NCBI GenBank assembly: GCA_965224085.1
Contig: CBDCYI010000011.1
Span: forward strand, 800,001 to 864,000
Source of the DNA: Candidatus Marinacidobacterales bacterium
GTDB lineage: Bacteria; Acidobacteriota; Vicinamibacteria; Marinacidobacterales; SMYC01
Length of the DNA stretch: 64,000 bases
Direction: 5' to 3'
The position numbers and the translations under genes are program-made. Position 1 is the first letter of the stretch. Every line of letters starts with the position of its first letter. Below are positions 7,501 to 23,935 of this stretch, one piece after another. The notes under the pieces were generated by a model, which saw only the letters and a list, made by a program, of their open reading frames with translations, was not told the DNA's origin and made no database searches.

Positions 7501-7674
7501 TCTGTTACGAACGCCTTGCGCGACCGGCTGGCCTGCCTGAAACGGGAGCGCTCCGAGCGGCGTTTGGCCGACGAACTCGACAAGATCGCACAGCATTGTG
7601 CGTCTTTACCAGTGCTCGATGAGAGGAGCCCAGAGGAGATCCTCGCGTACGACGAGAATGGCTTGCCGCGGTAG
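7501..7674 (+). pseudogene. vapB: VapB-family antitoxin, C-terminal part only
   Basis: Manual translation SVTNALRDRL...LADELDKIAQHCASLPVLDERSPEEILAYDENGLPR*; its stop overlaps the vapC start. Confidence 0.75.
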
Positions 7675-8045
7675 TGGTCATCGACACTTCAGCAGTGCTG
7701 GCTATTCTGCTAAATGAGCCTGAACGCCGCGGGTTCAACGAAGCCGTCGAGGCCGCTGAGTCCATTGGCCTATCCGCCGCCTTCGTTGAGACTTCGATCG
7801 TCGTTGAAGCGCGATTCGGGTCCGATGGTCTTCGAGGTCTCATGACAACCAAGGACGGCGCAGTCATCAACCTCGTCGGAAGTGGCGTCGGTAGTGCCGT
7901 TGGCGACGGCTTCGAGTACCGTGGGGCGATCTATTTCCATACGTCGGCAGAGAAGTACTCGCATCTGAATACGATTGCGGGCGTGATGGAGTACGGCGTC
8001 GATGGCGACGGCAATACCGTCACCAAGGTCTGGGAGTGGAAGTAG
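7674..8045 (+). pseudogene. vapC: Chimeric ORF: VapC PIN toxin N-half fused to a DUF3237-like C-half
   Basis: MVIDTSAVLAILLNEPER...VETSIVVEARFG (PIN) followed by TKDGAVI...FHTSAEKYSHLNTIAGV...VWEWK; the C-terminal PIN catalytic Asps are absent. Confidence 0.7.
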
Positions 8046-8865: not shown

Positions 8866-9195
8866 ATGGGAGACGACAGAACGATGGCGCTTGGAGGAAC
8901 GATTTCCGGGAACTCGCTGGAGCGGTGGAAGACGGACGCGCCTTCACCGGCATCTCCTCCCGATCTCGCTTGGTGGTTCGGCTATTTCAAGAACAACGCC
9001 GCGGAGCCGAAAGATATTCCATGGGAGGCCGTCCAGCCGCTCGCCGCGGAGGAGAAAGAAGCGATAGCGGCCTCCATCGCGGCTTTTCAGCTCGGCGAAT
9101 ATTCCGAAGGCCGAAACTTGATAAGGGTGGCCCGTGAATGCGCTGCGCGGCTAGAGGAGCCTGACTTGGTCGAGATTACCGAGCTCTTCGTCAAG
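8866..9195 (+). pseudogene. Ferritin-like domain protein, N-terminal fragment
   Basis: W..YF..N...IPW...AIAASIAAFQLGEYSEG...ITELFV, then the similarity stops just before the expected EExxH motif. Confidence 0.55.
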
Positions 9196-9490
9196 AACCG
9201 GGGGCGTTCGAACGGCCTCGCTGGCGAGCTCTGGAAGGACGAGCTATTGAAGAACACGCTGATGGTACATAGCGCGAGGATGGGTCCAAAAACATCTGCT
9301 TTTTTTCTTGACAGCCTTTTTGGAGCACCTTGCACGAACTTTCAAAGGCGATCGAGGATGCCCGTGTGACACATTGTCATCGCGTATAGAGACCAGAACT
9401 CTGCCAAAAGATTTTCAACGTCGCCTCGGCGCGCGTTCGTCGACTGTGCGCGACCCCATGAGGTCCAAAAAGTCCGTGCTCTAAAGAAAC

Positions 9491-9831
9491 ATGGCAGATA
9501 AATTCAAGCTCGATTCGATTTCAGATGAGCTTCTACTTCGACAGCTGTCGGAGATATTGAAAGGGTCGCGGCGCGTCGCGGTCGAGCTCGTCGCACACAT
9601 TGGCGAAGTGGATCGGCGGCGGCTATTTGCAAACCTCGCTTCCCGAGGAGACGTGGAGATGATCGAATACCTCGTATCCGAAGGCGCTGATGTGACGCTG
9701 CTGAATCGGGAAGGGCAAAGCACTGCCGACATGGCGAATGGACCGATGCAGCGCATTCAACCGTTTCCCGAGGCTCGGATCTGCTCGTACGCTTGGGCGC
9801 GGTGAACCACGACCAATGCGTTTCCTGCTGA
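9491..9831 (+). pseudogene. Chimeric shard: HNH/DUF222-like N-terminus joined to an ankyrin-protein C-terminus (frameshifted)
   Basis: SDELLLRQL...ELVAHIGEVDRRRLFA followed by ASRGDVEMIEYLVSEGADV...GQSTADMANGP and, after a shift, DLLVRLGAVNHDQCVSC*. Confidence 0.6.
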
Positions 9832-13957: not shown

Positions 13958-15458
13958 GTGGAATCCGTTCAGATCTCGACGATCGATCTGGCGATCGTTA
14001 TCGTCTACCTCGTCGCGGTAACCGCGCTCGGTCTTTGGGAGAGCCGCGGTATTCGGTCGAGCAAGGATTTCTTTCTCGCAGGGCGATCGCTCCCTTGGTG
14101 GGCGGCTGGCATGTCCATGGTTGTTTCCGATATCGGATATCGGCGCCAAAGACATGGTCGGCCTCGCGGGCGATGCCTATCGCTTCGGCATCGTCATGAT
14201 GAACTTCGATTTCGTCGGCTGCACGTTGCCGCTTCTCATCGCTGCGTTTCTCTTCATCCCGTTTTTCTGGACCTCCGAGGTCTACACGATTCCTCAATAT
14301 CTAGGGCTCCGCTACAACCCGGCGGTGCGCACGTTCTTCGCCGTTATTTGGTCCTTTTTCATGGTCGGCACCATCGCGACGATCCTCGTGAGCGCCGCGG
14401 CGATGTTCGAAGGCCTTCTCGGCTGGTCGTTTTGGCTTTCGGTAGGCGTGACTTCTGTGCTCGTAGGGCTCTACACGGTCTCGGGCGGGCTTCGCGCCGT
14501 CGTTTACACGGACGTCATCTCGTGTGTCGTGCTCATCGCGGGTGCGGCACTCATGTGCTTCATGGGACTTCGCAAGATCGGCGGCATTGGCAATCTCGTC
14601 GAGAGCGTCTCCACCCAAACGTGGACGACGGACCATTTCGATTTACTGCCTTCGGCTGCGCATCCCGACTATCCATGGCCCGCTGTCGTTGTTGGCCTTG
14701 GCTTCGTGCTCGGCCCGGCCTATTGGATTGGAAATCAAGCGATCGTCCAGCGCACGCTAGGGACGAAAAGCGCCCGAGATGCCCGCGCGTCCTATGTTCT
14801 TTGTGCCGTCATCAAGCTCGTCTTCCCGGTGTTGCTCGTTCTGCCCGGGCTCCTCGCCATTGGCCTCTTCGCTCGAGAGCTCGGTCCGCCGACAGCAGAC
14901 TGGGATGCCAATCAAGTGCTTCCGATGGTCGTCGCGCGGCTCGTCCCGAAAGGCGCCCTCGGCATTCTCATGGGAGCCTTCGTCGCCGGTGTGATGGCGA
15001 ATCTCGACTCGTATATCAACTCTGCGAGCACGCTGCTCGTGACCGATATCTATCGGCCCTTCGTCAACCCGCGCGCCTCGGATAAACAGTGCCTCGCTCT
15101 CGGCCGCTATCTCGTCATAGCACTTCTCGCGGGCGGGGTGCTCCTGAGCTACGAGGTCAAGATGCGCTTCGCGTCAGTCTTCGAAGCTTTCCAAACGTTC
15201 CTGTCGTTTTTTCAAGGAGCTCTCTTCGCACTTCTTTTGTTCGGCATGTTGACGCGGCGCGCCACACCGGCGGGGGGAGTGGCGGGAATGGTCGTCGGCG
15301 TCGCGGCGGCGGCGGGGCTGAACGCCTCAGGCGTCCTCTTTTTATGGACCGCTTGGTGGTCCTTCGTCGCGGCGTCGATCGCGATCCTCGTCGTGAGCAC
15401 GTTCACGGAGAAAAAGCCCGAAGAAGAGCTTCGCGGGCTCGTGTGCTGGAGGCGATGA
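13958..15458 (+). pseudogene. Sodium:solute symporter (SSS) frameshifted by a 7-bp duplication
   Basis: DFFLAGRSLPWW N-terminus in one frame and the remainder (YTVSGGLRAVVYTD, NQAIVQR) in another; GATATCG is repeated at 14129-14142. Confidence 0.88.
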
Positions 15459-17277: not shown

Positions 17278-17889
17278 TTGTCGCGAGCAGTCTACCACGG
17301 AGGTTTTCGTGCTCGTGGTCAGAGAAAAACGGAAGTAGGTTCCGTCCATAATAGAGACAGTCCCCGTCGCCCCATTCACAAATAGAAGTAGGAGTTGCTC
17401 CTTTGAACGACGCTTCGCGTGCGTTCTGGTTCAAGCCACCCCTCGAGCCTGGCGGCAACGAGGATACGCTCTTCGTGCCGCTGGCCGCCCGGACCGCGGT
17501 AGGTATGAGCCGGAGGACGCTCTTTGTCGAGTTCTACGATTCCATCCGTCTCTGGATAGAGGAGCACCGCAAGCCCGGCCTGGCGGTGGTTGCTCTCGGC
17601 GGGCGCAGAGTGTCTGGATCGAAAACCGCTCGATGTCCGCCCGAGCTGCCCCTATCACCGGAATCGTTGCCCTTCGTTAACGGGCTCAGCGTGGCTCCTC
17701 GCACGCGAAACCGCACGACATCGTGGCCGCTGCGAGCGATACACGACCCGGCTTGTAGCCGCGTAGCAAAGCCGAGCGATTTTGGGGCCGGCGAGGGTAT
17801 GGATGTCGAGTTAGCATGACGAGGAGGTGCGAGCAGATCCTGTGAAAGGATTCACAGGCCCCGGCCGTGTGGTCTGGTAGAGTAGCGTC

Positions 17890-18657
17890 ATGCGGCGCTC
17901 GAGCTCGGCGGTCGTCCTCTTCACGCTGACGCCGGAAGCGGAAGGGGTTAGAAAACCCCTCGGGCTCCACGGGTCGCAGCGTGCCACGGCTCTTTTTGCC
18001 ACACTGATCGAGCACGTCCAGACGGTGTGCACGGGTCTGAGCGGCGCCGATCTCCTCGTTGCCAGCGAGGCGCCGGTCGATCTCCCCGCGGGAGCTCAGT
18101 GGCTCCGTCAACGAGGGAGAGACTTCGGAGAATCGCTCAGGCTTGCGGTCGAGGAGGCGTTCGCGCGCGGCTACCGGCAGGTCGTCGTCATCGGGAACGA
18201 TGCGCCGGAGATCTGTCAGGATTACGTGAAAACCGCTCTCGACGAGCTCTCCCGAGGAGAACGGAAGGCCGCCGTCGGTCCGGCGACCGACGGAGGCTAC
18301 AACCTTATCGGCCTGACGGAGCCGTGCATCGCGGCCTTCGAAGCGATGCCCTGGGGCTCGGCCGAGGTTGCGCAACTGACCGTGGAGCGGCTTCGGGAAA
18401 GCGGCTTCGAAGTGGCGCATCTTCCGAAGCTCGAAGACATCGATAGCGCTCAGGAGCTCGTGCGCTTTTTGAACCGCATCTCCAGCCATGGACCGCGGGC
18501 CCGAGTAGCTCTGAAGAGGCTCGTTTCTCGGATTCGACAACTTTCCGCACCGGAACTTTGGACCATCGAAGAGGCTCATCACTCTCACAAGCGCCTCTCA
18601 CCCGCCGCCGCCCACCGGCTGCGCGCTCCGCCCCTGCCTTCCTGCACGACGCTCTAA
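17890..18657 (+). CDS. DUF2064 (TIGR04282-like) glycosyltransferase-like protein with a C-terminal RAPP motif
   Basis: QRGRDFGESL, VVVIGNDAP, VGPATDGGYNLIG, PW and DID motifs; tail ...HRLRAPPLPSCTTL. Confidence 0.85.
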   Translation: MRRSSSAVVLFTLTPEAEGVRKPLGLHGSQRATALFATLIEHVQTVCTGLSGADLLVASEAPVDLPAGAQWLRQRGRDFGESLRLAVEEAFARGYRQVVVIGNDAPEICQDYVKTALDELSRGERKAAVGPATDGGYNLIGLTEPCIAAFEAMPWGSAEVAQLTVERLRESGFEVAHLPKLEDIDSAQELVRFLNRISSHGPRARVALKRLVSRIRQLSAPELWTIEEAHHSHKRLSPAAAHRLRAPPLPSCTTL

Positions 18658-18701
18658 TCCTTCTGTTCGAGATCCGCGAAAGGCGGACCGGGAGTGTATC
18701 C

Positions 18702-19913
18702 ATGGAAAGGCCCATAGACTTGCAAAGACTAGCCATCATCGGCGCTGGCCCGATCGGAATCGAGGCCGCGCTCGCCGGGCGCGAGCTCGGATACGACGTT
18801 CGCGTCTATGAGCGTGGAACCGTCGGCGGGAACCTGCGGCGCTGGGGACGCGTGCGGCTCTTCTCTTCCTTCGAGCTCAATCACTCGGGGCGGGGTGCGC
18901 GTCTTCTCCAAGCCGAAGGTTTCAAGCTTCCCGAGGCCTCCGCGTATCTCACCGGGGAGGAGCACCTCGAGCGCTATCTCGAGCCTCTGTCGCGCACAGC
19001 CCCTCTGTCGGGATGCATCCACGAGAACACGCGCGTGGTCTCGGTCGGCCGCGAAGGCATCGGGAAGGGGGACCTCATCGGCGGTCCGCGGGAGCGGTAT
19101 CCGTTCCGGCTTCTCGTCGAAAGCGAGGCCGGCGACGAGGAGCTCGCGGAGGCAGACGTCCTTTTCGACTGTTCGGGAACGTACGGAAACCACAATTGGG
19201 TGGGAAACGGGAACGTACCGGCTCTCGGAGAGCGCGCGCTCGAGGAGCACATTGCCTACGAGCTCGAAGACGTCACCGGGACGGATCGCGCGAGATACGA
19301 GGCAAAGCGTGTTCTCCTCGTCGGCGACGGTCACTCGGCGAGCACGGCGCTCGACGGTTTGAGGGCCCTCCGCGAAACGACGGTCCACTGGGTCGTGCGA
19401 AAACAGAAGCCGCCCGCCGTCATCGCCGACGATCCGCTTCCCGAGCGCAAGAGGCTCTCCGAGCTCGCAGGTGAGCTCGCAGCGGGAGGCGACGCCCGGA
19501 TCCACTTCTATCCAGAGCACACCGTCGAGTCGGTACGGCGTGGGAGCTCCGCGTTCGAAGTCGAGCTTCGCTCGTCGCGGGCAACCAAGCTCGTGAGCGT
19601 GGACCGGATCCTTGCCCACGTCGGGTACCATCCGGACCGAAGCATCTATCGAGAGCTCCAAGTCCACGAGTGCTACGCCTCGCTGGCTCCGATGAAGCTT
19701 GCCGCAGCTCTTCTCGGCGAAAGCCCGGTCGACTGCTTGGCGCAGACGTCCAAAGGCGCCGAGGTTCTCAGAAATCCGGAACCGAATTTCTTCATTCTCG
19801 GGGCCAAGAGCTACGGCAAAGGCTCGAATTTCCTGATCCGCATCGGGCTCCGGCAGATCGCGGAAGTGTTCGGACTGCTGGCCGCCGAGAGGCGGAAGGA
19901 GCGAGCCTCGTGA
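18702..19913 (+). CDS. FAD/NAD(P)-dependent oxidoreductase (flavoprotein monooxygenase-like)
   Basis: IIGAGPIG, DCSGTY, VGDGHSA, GYHPD and LGAKSYGK motifs; SD GGGAG upstream of ATG 18702. Confidence 0.85.
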   Translation: MERPIDLQRLAIIGAGPIGIEAALAGRELGYDVRVYERGTVGGNLRRWGRVRLFSSFELNHSGRGARLLQAEGFKLPEASAYLTGEEHLERYLEPLSRTAPLSGCIHENTRVVSVGREGIGKGDLIGGPRERYPFRLLVESEAGDEELAEADVLFDCSGTYGNHNWVGNGNVPALGERALEEHIAYELEDVTGTDRARYEAKRVLLVGDGHSASTALDGLRALRETTVHWVVRKQKPPAVIADDPLPERKRLSELAGELAAGGDARIHFYPEHTVESVRRGSSAFEVELRSSRATKLVSVDRILAHVGYHPDRSIYRELQVHECYASLAPMKLAAALLGESPVDCLAQTSKGAEVLRNPEPNFFILGAKSYGKGSNFLIRIGLRQIAEVFGLLAAERRKERAS

Positions 19914-20800
19914 GCGCGAGCGCCCGGGTCGAGCTTCGCGCCCTCGACGATCTCTGGTTCCAAATCTCGGGAACGCTGTGCAATCTGACGTGCCACCACT
20001 GTTTCATCTCGTGTGGTCCGACGAACCATACGTTCGAGTTCCTCTCCCGTGAGGCCGTGCTCCTCGCACTCGAAGAGTCTCGGGAGCTCGGCGTCAAGGA
20101 GTATTACTTCACGGGGGGAGAGCCTTTCATACACCCGGACATGGTCGAGATTCTCGAGCGCACCCTGGAGCTCGGTCCGGCGACCGTGCTCACGAACGGG
20201 ACGTTGTTGAAACCGGAGGCCGCCGCCCGGCTGCAGCGGGCCGAGGCGCGATCGCCCTACAGCCTGGAGTTTCGGGTGAGCATCGACGGCTACTCGAGCG
20301 AGACGAACGATCCCATTCGCGGGGACGGGACGTTCGTGCGCGCGATGGCCGGTGTGCGGCTTCTTCTGCAGTACGGCTTCCTCCCGATCATCACCGTGGC
20401 GCAAACCTGGGACGACGATCGCAACGACGACGTCTTCGCGCGTTTCGTGAGCGTGCTGCGAGATGCAGGATACGAGCGCCCCCGAGTGAAGATCATTCCG
20501 ACCTTGCGGATCGGCGCCGAGGTCGAACGCAATCGCGGCTATCACCCGTCGGAGAAGGTGACCGTGGAGATGCTTGAGGACTTCGACGTCTCTCAGCTCA
20601 TCTGCACCCACTCGCGGATCGTGACCGAGAAGGGCGTCTACGTCTGCCCCATCCTCATCGACTCGCCGGAAGCCCGCATAGGAACGACCCTGTCCGAGTC
20701 GCTCGGCTCCTATCCGCTCGCGCATGGAGCCTGCTACACCTGCTATGTAGGCGGCGCCATTTGCAGCAATGTGAGCGCGGGAGGTGGCGATGCAGCCTGA
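19910..20800 (+). CDS. Radical SAM protein, ArsS-related
   Basis: GTLCNLTCHHCF (CxxxCxxC), FTGGEP, LTNG and a C-terminal Cys cluster (C...CP...CYTC...C); GTGA overlap with the upstream gene. Confidence 0.88.
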   Translation: MSASARVELRALDDLWFQISGTLCNLTCHHCFISCGPTNHTFEFLSREAVLLALEESRELGVKEYYFTGGEPFIHPDMVEILERTLELGPATVLTNGTLLKPEAAARLQRAEARSPYSLEFRVSIDGYSSETNDPIRGDGTFVRAMAGVRLLLQYGFLPIITVAQTWDDDRNDDVFARFVSVLRDAGYERPRVKIIPTLRIGAEVERNRGYHPSEKVTVEMLEDFDVSQLICTHSRIVTEKGVYVCPILIDSPEARIGTTLSESLGSYPLAHGACYTCYVGGAICSNVSAGGGDAA

Positions 20801-21584
20801 GCGCTTCGAGAGAATCGCCGCTCTCGGCGGCGTCTACAGCAACCATATCGCCCTCGAGGCCGCCATTGCCGACGCCCGCCGGCGCGACGTCGACGCCATC
20901 TTCTGTCTCGGGGATCTCGGCGCCTTCGGGCCACACCCCGACAAGACGTTTCCTTTGTTGCTCGAAGCGGGCGTACGGGTGATGCAGGGGAACTACGACA
21001 ACTCCATCGGGCGAGGACTCAACGACTGCCAGTGCGGGTACACCGACGCCCGCGACAACTTCTTCGCGAAGATTTCGTACGACTACACCTTCGACCGGAC
21101 TTCGGACCGATGGAAGTCGTGGCTGCGATCCCTCCCGGAGTCGATCCGCATCGAGCTCGGCGGCTACCGGGTGCTCATGAGCCACGGCTCGCCTCGAAAG
21201 ATGAACGAGTTCCTCTGGGAGTCCACGACCCCGACGCATTTTCTCGAGAAGATGGTGGAGTCGCATCACGCCGACGTGGTGCTGGCCACGCATACCGGTC
21301 TTCACTGGAAGCGCGAGCTTCCCGGCGACCGGCACTTCGTCAACGTCGGTGTCGTAGGGCGGCCTGCCAACGATGGACGGACCAACGTCTGGTACACGAT
21401 TCTCGACGCCAGCAACGGCTTCGACGCCGAGTTCGTTCCCGTGGACTACGACCACGAGAGCCTGGCGCTTGAGATGAAGCAGGAGGGTCTCCCGGTGGAG
21501 TTCATCGATACGATCCGGCACGGATGGTGGACCACCTGCCTCGAGATTCTCCCGGCGAAAGAGCGAAAGAAAGGAAGCTTCTGA
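20790..21584 (+). CDS. Calcineurin-like metallophosphoesterase with a CxCGY insert
   Basis: GGVYSN, CLGDL, GNYD, HGSP, THTG and NVG motifs. Confidence 0.88.
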   Translation: MQPERFERIAALGGVYSNHIALEAAIADARRRDVDAIFCLGDLGAFGPHPDKTFPLLLEAGVRVMQGNYDNSIGRGLNDCQCGYTDARDNFFAKISYDYTFDRTSDRWKSWLRSLPESIRIELGGYRVLMSHGSPRKMNEFLWESTTPTHFLEKMVESHHADVVLATHTGLHWKRELPGDRHFVNVGVVGRPANDGRTNVWYTILDASNGFDAEFVPVDYDHESLALEMKQEGLPVEFIDTIRHGWWTTCLEILPAKERKKGSF

Positions 21585-22750
21585 TGGCGACAACCGAGAT
21601 GAACCCTGAACGAGCCGTGAAGTCGCGTTACTCGCAGGCGGCATCGGCGCGTGAGCGAGAGCTCTGCTGTCCCGTGGACTACGACCTGCGATACCTGTCG
21701 GTCATTCCTGAAGAGATCCTCGAGCGGGACTACGGCTGCGGGGACCCTTCGAAGCACTTGCGCTCGGGAGAAACAGTTCTGGACCTCGGAAGCGGTGGCG
21801 GCAAGATTTGCTACATCGCGTCTCAGGTGGTGGGGCCGAAAGGCCGCGTCATCGGCGTCGACATGAACGACGACATGCTCGCGCTGGCGCGCAACTACCG
21901 TCAGAGCATCGGGGACGCGCTCGGCTTTCACAACGTCGAGCTCCGCAAAGGCAAGATTCAAGACCTCGCTCTCGATCAAGAAGGGCTCGAGGCCCATCTC
22001 GCGGCTTATCCGGTACGTACCCTCGAGGAGCTCGAGGCCGTGGGCCGCTGGAAAGAGAAGGAGCGGAAGGAGAACCCGATGATTCCGTCGGCCTCAATCG
22101 ACGTCGTGGTGAGCAACTGCGTGCTCAACCTCGTCGGCCCGCAGTCGAAATCCGAGCTCTTCCGCGAGATGCATCGTGTCCTGAAGAGGGGTGGACGCGT
22201 CGTCATCTCCGACATCGTGAGCGACGAAGACGTGCCCGAGCACTTGCAGGCCGACCCCGATCTCTGGAGCGGCTGCATTTCCGGCGCGTTTCGTGAAGAC
22301 CTGTTCTTGAAGGCATTCGAGGAAGCCGGGTTCTACGGCGTCGAGATCCTCTCGCGTGACGAAAGACCTTGGCAGAGCGTCGAGGGCATCGAGTTCCGCG
22401 CGCTCACGGTCCGAGCCTTCAAGGGGAAGGAAGGCCCGTGCCTCGAGCGCGATCAAGCCGTGATCTACAAAGGGCCATGGCGGAGCGTCACCGACGATGA
22501 TGGGCACGCGCTTTTTCGAGGCCAACGCATGGCGGTCTGCGACAAGACTTTCAACATTTACAAATCCGAGCCCTACGCAGCGGACATCGAAGCCGTAGAG
22601 CCTTACGAGGAGATTCCTCTTTCAGAAGCGGCGCCGTTCGATTGCCGGAAGGACGCGGTGCGCCATGCGCGGGAGACCAAGGGGCTCGACTACGATGCCA
22701 CCGAGACAACCGACGCGCCGTACTGCGGACCCGACGGTAACTGCTGCTGA
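21584..22750 (+). CDS. arsM: Arsenite methyltransferase-like SAM-dependent methyltransferase
   Basis: LCC, YGCGDP, LDLGSGGG, SNCVLNL and WSGCISGA carry the ArsM cysteine pattern; C-terminal extension ends in CC. Confidence 0.75.
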   Translation: MATTEMNPERAVKSRYSQAASARERELCCPVDYDLRYLSVIPEEILERDYGCGDPSKHLRSGETVLDLGSGGGKICYIASQVVGPKGRVIGVDMNDDMLALARNYRQSIGDALGFHNVELRKGKIQDLALDQEGLEAHLAAYPVRTLEELEAVGRWKEKERKENPMIPSASIDVVVSNCVLNLVGPQSKSELFREMHRVLKRGGRVVISDIVSDEDVPEHLQADPDLWSGCISGAFREDLFLKAFEEAGFYGVEILSRDERPWQSVEGIEFRALTVRAFKGKEGPCLERDQAVIYKGPWRSVTDDDGHALFRGQRMAVCDKTFNIYKSEPYAADIEAVEPYEEIPLSEAAPFDCRKDAVRHARETKGLDYDATETTDAPYCGPDGNCC

Positions 22751-22772: not shown

Positions 22773-23516
22773 CTAACTCTCGAGTACATCGTACCGATTC
22801 AAATCGTCGTCGCCTAGAAAACTCTCCACCCAACGAAGCGGCAGCTCGCGGCTAAGTGCCTCCGATTCCTCTTCGCTCGCCGCATGACAATAACGGTACG
22901 CGGCGGGGACGCCCCACGTCATGATGTGATCGCCAAGCTCGAACTCGCCGGGATCCAGCGTTTCCGATGACACCCCGAGGTAGTCCTCCCAGTGCACCAG
23001 CTTCTTGACAAAGCGCGGGAACTGGTCGAACCGCCAAGCCGTATACACCAACACGCCTCTGGAAGCCACACGCGCCGAAACCTCGGTGAGCAGTTTCAAA
23101 CGGCGTGCTCCCCCAGGCACGTGGTGCAGCACGCCAAACAAAACGACCAGATCGAACGTGGCCGACGCGAGCGCATCGGGCAGGAGCTCGGGCCCCGTGA
23201 TAAAGTCGTGCTTGTAAAGCTCGACGGCGTCGAGCTCCGCAAGCCGGGGACGGGCATGCTCCAGTGCAAGACCGCTCGCATCGACGCCGACATAAGTGAA
23301 CCGCATACCGCGCTGCGCCATAAAACGCGCAAAGCGACCGTTACCGCAGCCGAGATCGAGGACCCTGGGCTGAGCTTTCAGCCGAGACCCGATGCGGTCG
23401 AAGAGCACGTCCCACCCCCGCCACGCGCGCTCACGCGTTTGGTTGAACTCGTCCGCGCGCTCGGCGTAAAAACGCCGGTTGATCGCGTTGAGCTTCCGGA
23501 CCGTCTCCTCGTTCAT
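22773..23516 (-). CDS. Class I SAM-dependent methyltransferase
   Basis: VLDLGCGNGRF and VLHHVP motifs. Confidence 0.85.
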   Translation of the reverse strand: MNEETVRKLNAINRRFYAERADEFNQTRERAWRGWDVLFDRIGSRLKAQPRVLDLGCGNGRFARFMAQRGMRFTYVGVDASGLALEHARPRLAELDAVELYKHDFITGPELLPDALASATFDLVVLFGVLHHVPGGARRLKLLTEVSARVASRGVLVYTAWRFDQFPRFVKKLVHWEDYLGVSSETLDPGEFELGDHIMTWGVPAAYRYCHAASEEESEALSRELPLRWVESFLGDDDLNRYDVLES

Positions 23517-23935
23517 GGCTCAGTCGTGGGCGGCTTGCGGCCTTCGCGCGGTGTGATCACGACACCCGGAAGCGCCCACGTGAGCGCGCCATCCGTAACG
23601 ACGAACGCGCCGCCGACGAGCACGTGGACGACGCCTTCCGCGTCCTCCGATCTCAATCCGTCCGTGCGGCGGCCGTCCGCATGAGAATGCAGATCGATGA
23701 ATCCTGGAGCCACGGTGAGACCGTTGAGATCCATCCGGCGCGCGGCGGATCGACCTTTGAGATCGCCGACGGCAACGATGAGGCCGTTTCGGATCCCGAT
23801 ATCCGCCTCGAACCACGGATTGCCCGTGCCGTCGATGACGTGCGCATCCGAAAGCACGAGATCGAACTCCTGCGCAGCCGCAGTGTCGCCGATGAATAGT
23901 AGGAGAACCCACCAAAGCAGCGCGTTTTTCTGCAT
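23513..23935 (-). pseudogene. D-aminoacylase/amidohydrolase with a large in-frame internal deletion
   Basis: IDGTGNPWFEADIGI...APGFIDLHSH is joined directly to the terminal EGVVHVLVGG...ALPGVVI; only 140 aa. Confidence 0.85.

Follow-up and report, generated by a model that had tools for sequence, protein, structure and literature searches.

The window analysed here is a stretch of 64,000 nucleotides (nt) from a Candidatus Marinacidobacterales bacterium (contig CBDCYI010000011.1, positions 800,001 to 864,000), and the element in question is a forward-strand gene at 17890..18657 that encodes a DUF2064 protein of 255 amino acids (aa) with a C-terminal Arg-Ala-Pro-Pro (RAPP) motif. It precedes an operon of four genes on the same strand and is referred to below as the leader gene. 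The open reading frame (ORF) ends in RLRAPPLPSCTTL*, with RAPP at residues 245-248 and its codons, CGC GCT CCG CCC, at 18622..18633; both frame and motif lie where the initial annotation had placed them. The leader protein is made up of a CofC/FbiD-like nucleotidyltransferase fold and a predicted arrest tail, at which the ribosome, by analogy with ApdA, ApdP and CruR, is predicted to halt when Pro247 occupies the P site and Pro248 the A site. Between the leader stop codon and the next ATG there are 44 nt.

The only Pfam match of the leader protein is to PF09837 (DUF2064; E 2e-25). The match to TIGR04282 begins at residue 9 and reaches 121.7 bits, below the cut-off of 134, and the protein does not qualify as a canonical member of that family. 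The AlphaFold 2 (AF2) model is globular alpha/beta, with a predicted local distance difference test score (pLDDT) of 92.8, and Foldseek places it closest to 3CGX (E 5e-20) and then to CofC/FbiD (E about 1e-9), to which the identity is only 15-20%. The PF09837 match, the fold and a three-Asp metal site together give the leader the traits of a DUF2064/CofC-like protein. No signal peptide or membrane segment is indicated by the globular model and the start of the TIGR04282 match at residue 9, no dedicated signal-peptide predictor having been used. The closest genome locus, also Candidatus Marinacidobacterales, encodes a protein 95% identical to the leader, and close homologues carry the names Vicinamibacteria or Acidobacteriota.

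Conservation of the motif in orthologues, on which the initial annotation had made its proposal depend, was found at every level of the comparison. A first, ranked search gave 57 proteins; RAPP or RGPP stands 6-12 residues from the C-terminus in 42 of the 46 closest, far more often than chance would give, the remaining four being fragments of 149-193 aa or frameshifted, while the weakest 11 include one with RGPP. Genome loci (prefix L) were taken from a single scan with a core-domain pattern, which yielded 18, a small base for the RNA analysis; 17 of them end in xxPP, ten as RAPP or RGPP and seven as KSPP, LPPP, PAPP or TAPP, and L018 has none of these. After addition of the best 150 of 13,578 library matches, 189 of 199 proteins, of 180-310 aa, were retained. 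A canonical K-T-R-L-type loop is present in 97 of the 189, and not one of these ends in the motif (0/97); the 92 without that loop comprise 73 with a terminal R[AGS]PP, 7 with a Pro-Pro variant of looser form and 12 that have neither ending. The separation is reproduced by a tree of the core domain only, from which the tail was excluded (FastTree, midpoint root, local support only): a branch with local support 99 divides all 97 canonical proteins and 8 unlabelled ones from all 80 motif-bearing proteins, which are joined by 4 lacking the motif. Having no outgroup root, this tree does not give the order of descent of the two branches. A profile search supplied 82 further proteins, with the motif in 0 of 55 canonical and 24 of 27 other members, a result that is not independent because the motif was part of the profile.

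For residue statistics, 61 tail-bearing proteins, picked by their tail, and 137 canonical ones were dereplicated at 60%. The Arg is conserved in 93% and both Pro in 100% of the tail-bearing set (RAPP in 29, RGPP in 22), the linker before them is not conserved, and across tails the motif lies 1-11 residues from the end; as in the RAPP class at large, the motif is constant while the segment upstream varies. Judged from sequence, the RAPP tail is real and marks a family, and the tail branch is separate from canonical DUF2064/TIGR04282. Its size and taxonomy are taken from the names in search matches and in the rows of a published list discussed below, among which Salinibacter ruber, Hymenobacter and Pontibacter occur. 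Database records of the window protein were, among the matches listed (40 of 62), all annotated TIGR04282, and one protein (P0277) bears that annotation despite a tail-type N-terminal loop.

The variant tails stand at the same site as RAPP. PAPP, TAPP, LPPP and KSPP were located in L010 (7593), L012 (9667), L013 (9673) and L015 (7527), and likewise in L006 (9769), L017 (9520) and L005 (4268). These variants, the Arg-less PAPP, TAPP and LPPP as well as KSPP, may be polyproline-type stalls as in CutF, possibly sensitive to elongation factor P. In L018 (9001-9714) a tail-branch-like protein without the motif has a P450 gene upstream and no arsenic or uptake neighbours. Plasmid records gave one tail-branch locus, L019.

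The two branches differ within the core domain as well. In place of G-x-V-K-T-R-L the leader has a remodelled N-terminal loop, E18-x-x-R-K-P-L (17941..17961), which reads E-G-V-R-K-P-L and is not of the canonical type. Among the 61 tail-branch proteins this loop is E-x-x-R-K-x-L (E 90%, R 72%, K 69%), against G 89%, K 94%, T 85% and R 94% in the 137 canonical ones. The aspartate triad, by contrast, is common to both: D104 (18199-18201) and D183 with D185 (18436-18444), spanning 18199..18444, align with the GD-P and D-D motifs of CofC, matching the CofC/FbiD two-Mg site, and are conserved in 98-100% of both branches (97-100% with D134 included), and the GP-x-DGG motif is as conserved in the tail branch as in canonical proteins. 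In CofC/FbiD these aspartates bind two Mg ions and the phosphates of the ligand (PMC8764529, PMC6450877). Since the aspartates are kept and the nucleotide loop is changed, the ligand pocket of the leader domain looks intact but altered.

Past residue 220 the block pLDDT drops to 74 and then to 58. The confident fold, whose last helix comprises residues 206-218, stops near residue 220, 27 residues short of Pro247, and is followed by a low-confidence linker (residues 219-244; 18544..18621) that would fill the exit tunnel at arrest. From the D-x-D to the first Pro of the motif the median distance is 56 residues (5th-95th percentile 51-62, n=104), the tail keeping its length while its sequence varies; such constancy is what the folding or ligand sensor first suggested for this protein needs. 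The exit tunnel holds about 30-35 residues, so that during a stall the last helix would be at the tunnel exit, and in the model the domain could fold just outside the tunnel at arrest, there pulling on the chain.

All seven C-terminal RAPP/RGPP proteins tested arrest the ribosome (7/7; PMC12992588), and the Arg is irreplaceable in the motif of ApdA/ApdP. ApdA, ApdP and SecM (PMC10951233, PMC12992588) share with the leader a RAPP/RGPP core, a variable upstream segment and a position near the C-terminal end of an upstream ORF. They possess a signal peptide or membrane segment and are released through Sec/YidC pulling, whereas the leader begins at once with the enzyme domain and has genes of metabolism or transport behind it; a sec or yidC gene, as a Sec/YidC monitor would have, was not found downstream of the leader in the window and the scanned loci. 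CruR, a DUF2946 protein of Bordetella pertussis in which the RAPP arrest is relieved in a ligand-dependent manner (PMC9426467, PMC12992588), has more in common with the leader: both come first in the operon, carry a C-terminal RAPP at a set distance from the known or putative sensor, often have a TonB-dependent receptor next and show a region of C-over-G excess (bubble). However, CruR is an exported protein of 145 aa with a CXXC copper motif, while the putative sensor of the leader is an enzyme fold in the cytoplasm, about 220 aa long and with neither Cys nor His conserved, and the genes behind it are linked to arsenic; neither the DUF2946 Pfam match nor a conserved CXXC is present in the leader. 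In CutF, the DUF2946 protein of Rhodobacter capsulatus (bioRxiv 10.1101/2025.02.05.636593), a Pro-rich C-terminal stall melts a stem-loop over the next ribosome-binding site, as proposed for the leader, but CutF is secreted, belongs to the other family and stalls upon copper induction, and its step of freeing the Shine-Dalgarno sequence (SD) was not reproduced in silico for the leader.

On the enzyme side, TIGR04282/DUF2064 proteins, named 'arsenosugar biosynthesis glycosyltransferase' (3CGX), share with the leader the fold, the aspartate triad, GP-x-DGG and the association with arsenosugar clusters; that family name is an annotation at the level of a hypothesis. The leader differs in its score below the cut-off, the loss of K-T-R-L, an extra tail of about 60 aa and its separate branch. 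The guanylyltransferases CofC/FbiD (7P97, 6BWH; PMC8764529, PMC6450877) have the fold and the three-Asp two-Mg site in common with it at 15-20% identity, but the leader lacks an F420 context and CofC/FbiD lack an arrest tail. Their fold can hold a ligand, since CofC co-purifies with tightly bound product.

The tail branch has been listed before. The RAPP list in the source data of Fig. 4B of PMC12992588 (2025), pre-selected for gene classes of this kind, contains 44 DUF2064 rows with RAPP near the C-terminal end, 37 before TonB/SusC receptors and 7 before an arsenosugar peroxidase-like gene. They belong to the same branch as the leader and appear in bulk only, none being among the tested proteins in the sections examined; the main text contains neither 'DUF2064' nor 'DUF' nor 'arsen', and figure labels could still name them. 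The same paper names the source of the releasing force outside protein localisation as an open question. Searches of a literature from which subscription papers were mostly absent found nothing on 'DUF2064', a family that figures or tables might mention, nothing under 'TIGR04282' that was related by title and start of abstract, and nothing on arrest control of arsenic genes or on an assay of either DUF2064 branch. A whole enzyme fold as the sensor of a RAPP arrest leader, which is how the branch probably works, would be a new variation; the feature itself is real and conserved, with strong evidence at the level of the family.

Downstream of the leader lie, all on the forward strand, a flavin adenine dinucleotide (FAD)-dependent oxidoreductase (18702..19913; Pyr_redox_3, E 1.5e-13), a radical S-adenosylmethionine (SAM) protein (19910..20800), a metallophosphoesterase (20784..21584; PF12850, E 1e-10) and, as last gene of the operon, an ArsM-like methyltransferase (21584..22750); each of the latter three genes overlaps its upstream neighbour. 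Every one of the best NCBIfam matches of the ArsM-like protein is an arsenite methyltransferase, with 345.9 bits where the cut-off is 500 and 194 where it is 263; the protein contains the Cys motifs CC, GCG, SNC and GCI, which we take to serve an ArsM role. Judging by their NCBIfam names, ArsM and ArsS presumably act in arsenosugar synthesis. The radical SAM protein is 58% identical to that of the L005 operon; it is not an ArsS (TIGR04167, 52.7 bits against 300).

A scan of neighbouring genes with hidden Markov models (HMMs) covered 89 of 126 candidate ORFs. It found the four-gene set of the window also in L002, L004 and L006, in all of which the FAD oxidoreductase is likewise next to the leader, with an ArsS above its cut-off added after the ArsM-like gene in L004; in L001 and L003 the set is recognized by sequence and ORF pattern only. 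A TIGR04169 peroxidase-like gene and ArsS follow in L013 and L015 by HMM, and in L010 and L012 ArsS by HMM and the peroxidase-like gene by sequence likeness. SusC/TonB receptors with a YnjB-type ATP-binding cassette (ABC) system or a symporter are present in L007, L008, L009, L011, L014, L017 and L019, and in L016 by sequence only, and L005 has a phosphate-selective porin and then the radical SAM gene like that of the window. By neighbour HMMs, then, the leader does head arsenic-related operons in the window and in part of the loci, as the initial annotation had it. Its contexts, arsenosugar-type enzymes or uptake systems, span several phyla. A co-oriented gene follows in all tail-bearing loci, and in about 15 of 19 the leader heads its unit (nearest plausible upstream gene in the ORF lists divergent or more than 150 nt away), the exceptions including L006 and L012, so that it holds the place of RAPP-class leaders at the head of co-oriented target genes. 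That the genes behind the leader serve synthesis or import depending on the genome suggests a feedback regulon. The YnjB-type (PRK11622) ABC systems standing behind a TonB/SusC receptor downstream of the leader in L007, L011, L014 and L019 are candidate organoarsenical importers.

Two RNA pairings compete around the SD of the first regulated gene, GGGAG (18690-18694; GGAG from 18691), which with the ATG at 18702-18704 occupies 18690..18704. In the ribosome-free state an arm in the leader coding region, 18623..18640, can pair with 18680-18697 and so cover the SD; 14 of 18 positions pair around a 4x4 internal loop, precisely as described at the outset. The fold of 18617-18705 with this long helix enforced equals the minimum free energy (MFE) structure, at -25.6 kcal/mol, with a probability of 0.97 for the inner helix and 0.34 for the outer SD helix. 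The SD-proximal hairpin TCCGC (18673)/GCGGA (18683), at 18673..18687, has a probability of 0.02 without a ribosome and 0.64 in the simulated stalled state. A CCGC/GCGG[AG] hairpin just 5' of the SD is found in L002, L003 and L004 too, with stalled-state probabilities of 0.61-0.99, and under the footprint its 3' arm swaps the RAPP region for the local arm in the window, L002 and L004. Both pairings exist and recur in four acidobacterial loci (window, L002, L003, L004), which bears out that part of the original proposal. The 7-mer CTCCGCC is invariant in six of six aligned loci, and together with its complement GCGG[AG] it is retained in five loci whose spacers are otherwise unalignable. When the RAPP-region codons are paired with the final 25 nt ahead of the start codon, the best duplex includes the SD in all four acidobacterial loci; all four also encode the Ala of RAPP by GCT, an uncommon codon (48 of the 422 Ala codons of nine genes in the window).

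By its strength, the long helix in the window does not stand out from chance, whether compared with synonymous-codon shuffles (P = 0.22-0.27) or with a shuffled spacer (0.36); against synonymous shuffles the duplex energies of the acidobacterial loci give P values of 0.22, 0.50, 0.07 and 0.16, and P < 0.05 is reached in 3 of 18 loci (L002, L003, L014). A post hoc test for 5-mer complements was positive in 8 of 18 loci against 2.3 expected; without the five loci that had prompted it, 3 of 13 were positive where 1.0 was expected (P = 0.05). Comparison of the acidobacterial loci revealed no compensatory change, and the Bacteroidota loci show no SD pairing. In L009 (9706-9722) a spacer hairpin, CCTCA/TGAGG, has in its 3' arm GAGGA, the complement of a CCT-coded RAPP; GAGGA/CCT there for GCGGA/CCG in Acidobacteria is a possible compensatory change, a single case. 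In L002 and L003 (about 9635-9645) a coding CTCCTCCCC about 80 nt upstream of RAPP can form about 10 bp with the SD region GGGGAGGAG; this element is absent from the window and L004. No Rfam match reached the gathering score in the window, L002, L004, L005 and L006, and the spacer holds no intrinsic terminator.

The region around the motif, 18572..18649, is also a C-over-G bubble and a possible Rho loading site as in cruR. Its skew is 0.43, in a gene body with a mean of -0.08 and a maximum of 0.08. In all 16 loci examined the skew is higher at the motif than on average over the gene body (Wilcoxon p = 4e-4), and four-fold third positions favour C over G with an odds ratio of 1.38 (p = 0.047). 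Pro, Ser and Leu codons impose part of this skew.

Taking these results together, we think it probable, if well short of certain, that tail-branch DUF2064 is a CruR-like arrest leader in which the whole nucleotidyltransferase fold serves as the sensor. By analogy with the tested RAPP proteins the ribosome very probably arrests at the C-terminal RAPP; motif and spacing suggest that some 218 residues, the entire domain, would then be just outside the exit tunnel. There the domain would bind a phosphorylated or nucleotide-linked metabolite of an organoarsenical (arsenosugar-type) pathway, and the ligand-bound domain would complete its folding and pull the chain off the arrest, a release by metabolite-stabilised folding that we regard as rather likely. 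Staying on or leaving the RAPP codons, the ribosome would set the expression of the downstream synthesis or uptake genes, and that the leader controls its operon is highly likely. Arrest most likely would mean ON and ligand OFF, given the analogy with CruR and the fact that one leader heads both synthesis and import genes, and the output would probably pass through the competing pairings, the Rho site or both. A fuller history, in which an enzyme duplicate kept its pocket, changed its loop and gained a tail so that an organoarsenical intermediate now frees the ribosome and thereby shuts the synthesis and import genes, has in our estimate close to an even chance, if slightly under it.

Several observations weigh against the arrest leader or against parts of it. 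RAPP without upstream context is insufficient for arrest (PMC12992588); seven of the 17 loci with a Pro-Pro end carry KSPP, LPPP, PAPP or TAPP though Arg cannot be replaced in ApdA/ApdP, and tail-branch members without the motif exist (P0099, P0277, L018). The arsenic link is one of HMM names, and the ArsM-like protein stays under its cut-offs. As no canonical paralogue lies in the window or in the surroundings of the 19 loci, the leader protein may still be a pathway enzyme. At the RNA level, the hairpin of the initial annotation does pair, but the SD is not left free by it in equilibrium folds, which ignore co-transcriptional folding and ribosome queues. From the free to the stalled state the probability of an unpaired SD changes from 0.15 to 0.14 in the window, from 0.32 to 0.37 in L002, from 0.08 to 0.11 in L003 and from 0.26 to 0.15 in L004, so footprint folding gave no gain above 0.05 in any of the four and did not bear out the claim that a stalled ribosome frees the SD. 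The SD stays closed in the simulated stalled window because a second anti-SD, ACGCTCT (18649..18655), which pairs with 18691-18697 and is absent from the initial annotation, takes over, with a partner probability of 0.94 under a footprint to +15. Opening energies of the SD in the window shift by about 0-3 kcal/mol in a direction set by the folding window chosen, and the large drops that appear in L002 and L003 once 80 nt are added at the 5' end are due to the separate CTCCTCCCC anti-SD, not to the RAPP codons.

Among other explanations of the whole, the leader might be an active transferase of the pathway whose RAPP pause, constitutive or coupled to folding, responds only to Mg, a partner or the folding of the protein itself and fixes the stoichiometry or basal level of the operon, no specific metabolite being read. 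The conservation of the aspartate triad and GP-x-DGG at canonical levels agrees with this, as does the absence of a canonical paralogue from the window and from within about 9 kb in 19 loci, and so does the cost of opening the SD, which in the window falls from about 6-9 to 3.5-4.5 kcal/mol when the ribosome is at the stop codon, as expected of plain translational coupling. We hold it unlikely, however, in view of the loss of K-T-R-L that accompanies the gain of the tail nearly without exception, of a gene that is mostly first and often ahead of pure transport operons, and of an arrest near the gene end that would leave little product. Very improbable is a RAPP that acts as a protein-level signal (a binding site or degron) or persists as a relic, with no regulatory arrest: the arrest itself is predicted from sequence and some members are Arg-less or lack the motif, but the alternation of RAPP and RGPP (29 and 22 of 61) fits the substitutions permitted for arrest, the motifs are strongly avoided in proteomes (PMC12992588), and they lie within 1-11 residues of the end. 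As for the His-containing tail pointed out in the initial annotation, the window protein has four His at residues 230-242, one Cys at 252 and no CXXC, and direct binding of metal or arsenite, like that by the CXXC of DUF2946 leaders, could be read from them. Yet the 25 residues before the motif contain no His in 48 of 98 tails and one in 37, neither His nor Cys attains 70% at any position of the 61 tail-bearing proteins, and the residues would sit within the tunnel or beyond the arrest site; a metal-sensing tail is hardly credible on these figures and was rejected, its His residues not being conserved.

Two further alternatives concern the output step only and leave the arrest leader as it stands. 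In the exact SD switch, arrest would break the 18623-40/18680-97 helix, TCCGC/GCGGA would form and the SD would be freed. The long helix iso-energetic with the MFE, the duplex over the SD in all four acidobacterial loci, the change of partner by the hairpin 3' arm in the window, L002 and L004 and the uncommon GCT codon speak for such a switch, but the simulated stall makes the SD no more accessible, the duplexes are not significantly stronger than those of synonymous shuffles, the complement test falls to 3 of 13 on held-out loci and compensatory changes are lacking among the acidobacterial loci; it is a tentative possibility, leaning to the doubtful side. The other is Rho-dependent termination of the CruR type, the SD hairpins being incidental. 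The raised skew at the motif in every one of 16 loci, the third-position bias, Bacteroidota loci devoid of SD pairing, a spacer without intrinsic terminator and the use of a C>G bubble by CruR (PMC9426467) favour it, whereas the skew largely follows Pro, Ser and Leu codons, the window spacer has just 44 nt, and CTCCGCC and GCGG[AG] are kept in five loci with unalignable spacers, which makes termination as the sole output rather doubtful.

Known RAPP leaders are released by the secretion machinery or by copper on a short motif. A leader of the kind proposed would sense a cytoplasmic metabolite with an entire enzyme fold outside the ribosome, a widespread 'protein riboswitch', and many bacteria would treat an arsenosugar-type compound as worth making or scavenging, with the SusC/TonB and YnjB-type systems as candidate importers for it. 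The family provides a direct test of where the releasing force can come from when protein localisation is not involved: a well-folded cytoplasmic domain with an intact ligand site stands at a conserved tunnel-length distance from RAPP, and the enzyme-like sister branch can serve as control. For the arsenosugar clusters, which are poorly understood, it would further supply a regulator with a candidate regulon; many orphan SusC/TonB and ABC systems become candidate organoarsenical importers, and the annotation 'DUF2064' calls for caution, as it lumps two functionally different branches.

The start of the leader gene has features of its own. A putative extended -10 element, TG-G-TAGAGT (17875..17883, forward strand), stands 6 nt 5' of the start codon, and TAGAGT or TAGATT is found 6-7 nt 5' of the leader start in the window, L001, L002, L003 and L004, all acidobacterial; a -10-like hexamer so close to the start suggests that the leader mRNA is leaderless. 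The hexamer-to-start spacing of the leader recurs in 1 of 10 control genes of the window, and a sigma-70 scan returned no full -35/-10 promoter for it. More generally, the likely leader start has a TAnnnT hexamer 6-8 nt upstream in the window (17875-17892), L002 (8995), L003 (8995) and L004 (9001) and, in the same placement, in L010 (6918), L012 (8995) and L013 (8998), with no obvious SD. Another ORF, of 138 aa, at 17403-17819 ends 70 nt 5' of the leader; the best local DNA alignment to L001 starts only at about 17813, so this ORF is not conserved and may be spurious.

The trio of FAD oxidoreductase, radical SAM protein and metallophosphoesterase (18702-21584) has no named NCBIfam above cut-off and recurs with ArsM-like genes in loci of Acidobacteriota and Calditrichaceae, possibly an undescribed branch of an organoarsenical pathway. 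Elsewhere in the window, the ORFs at 7674-8045, 8866-9369, 9491-9805, 13958-15458 and 23513-23935 appear truncated, frameshifted or chimeric, among them a sodium:solute symporter whose start is seemingly split over two frames; they may be pseudogenes or assembly errors.

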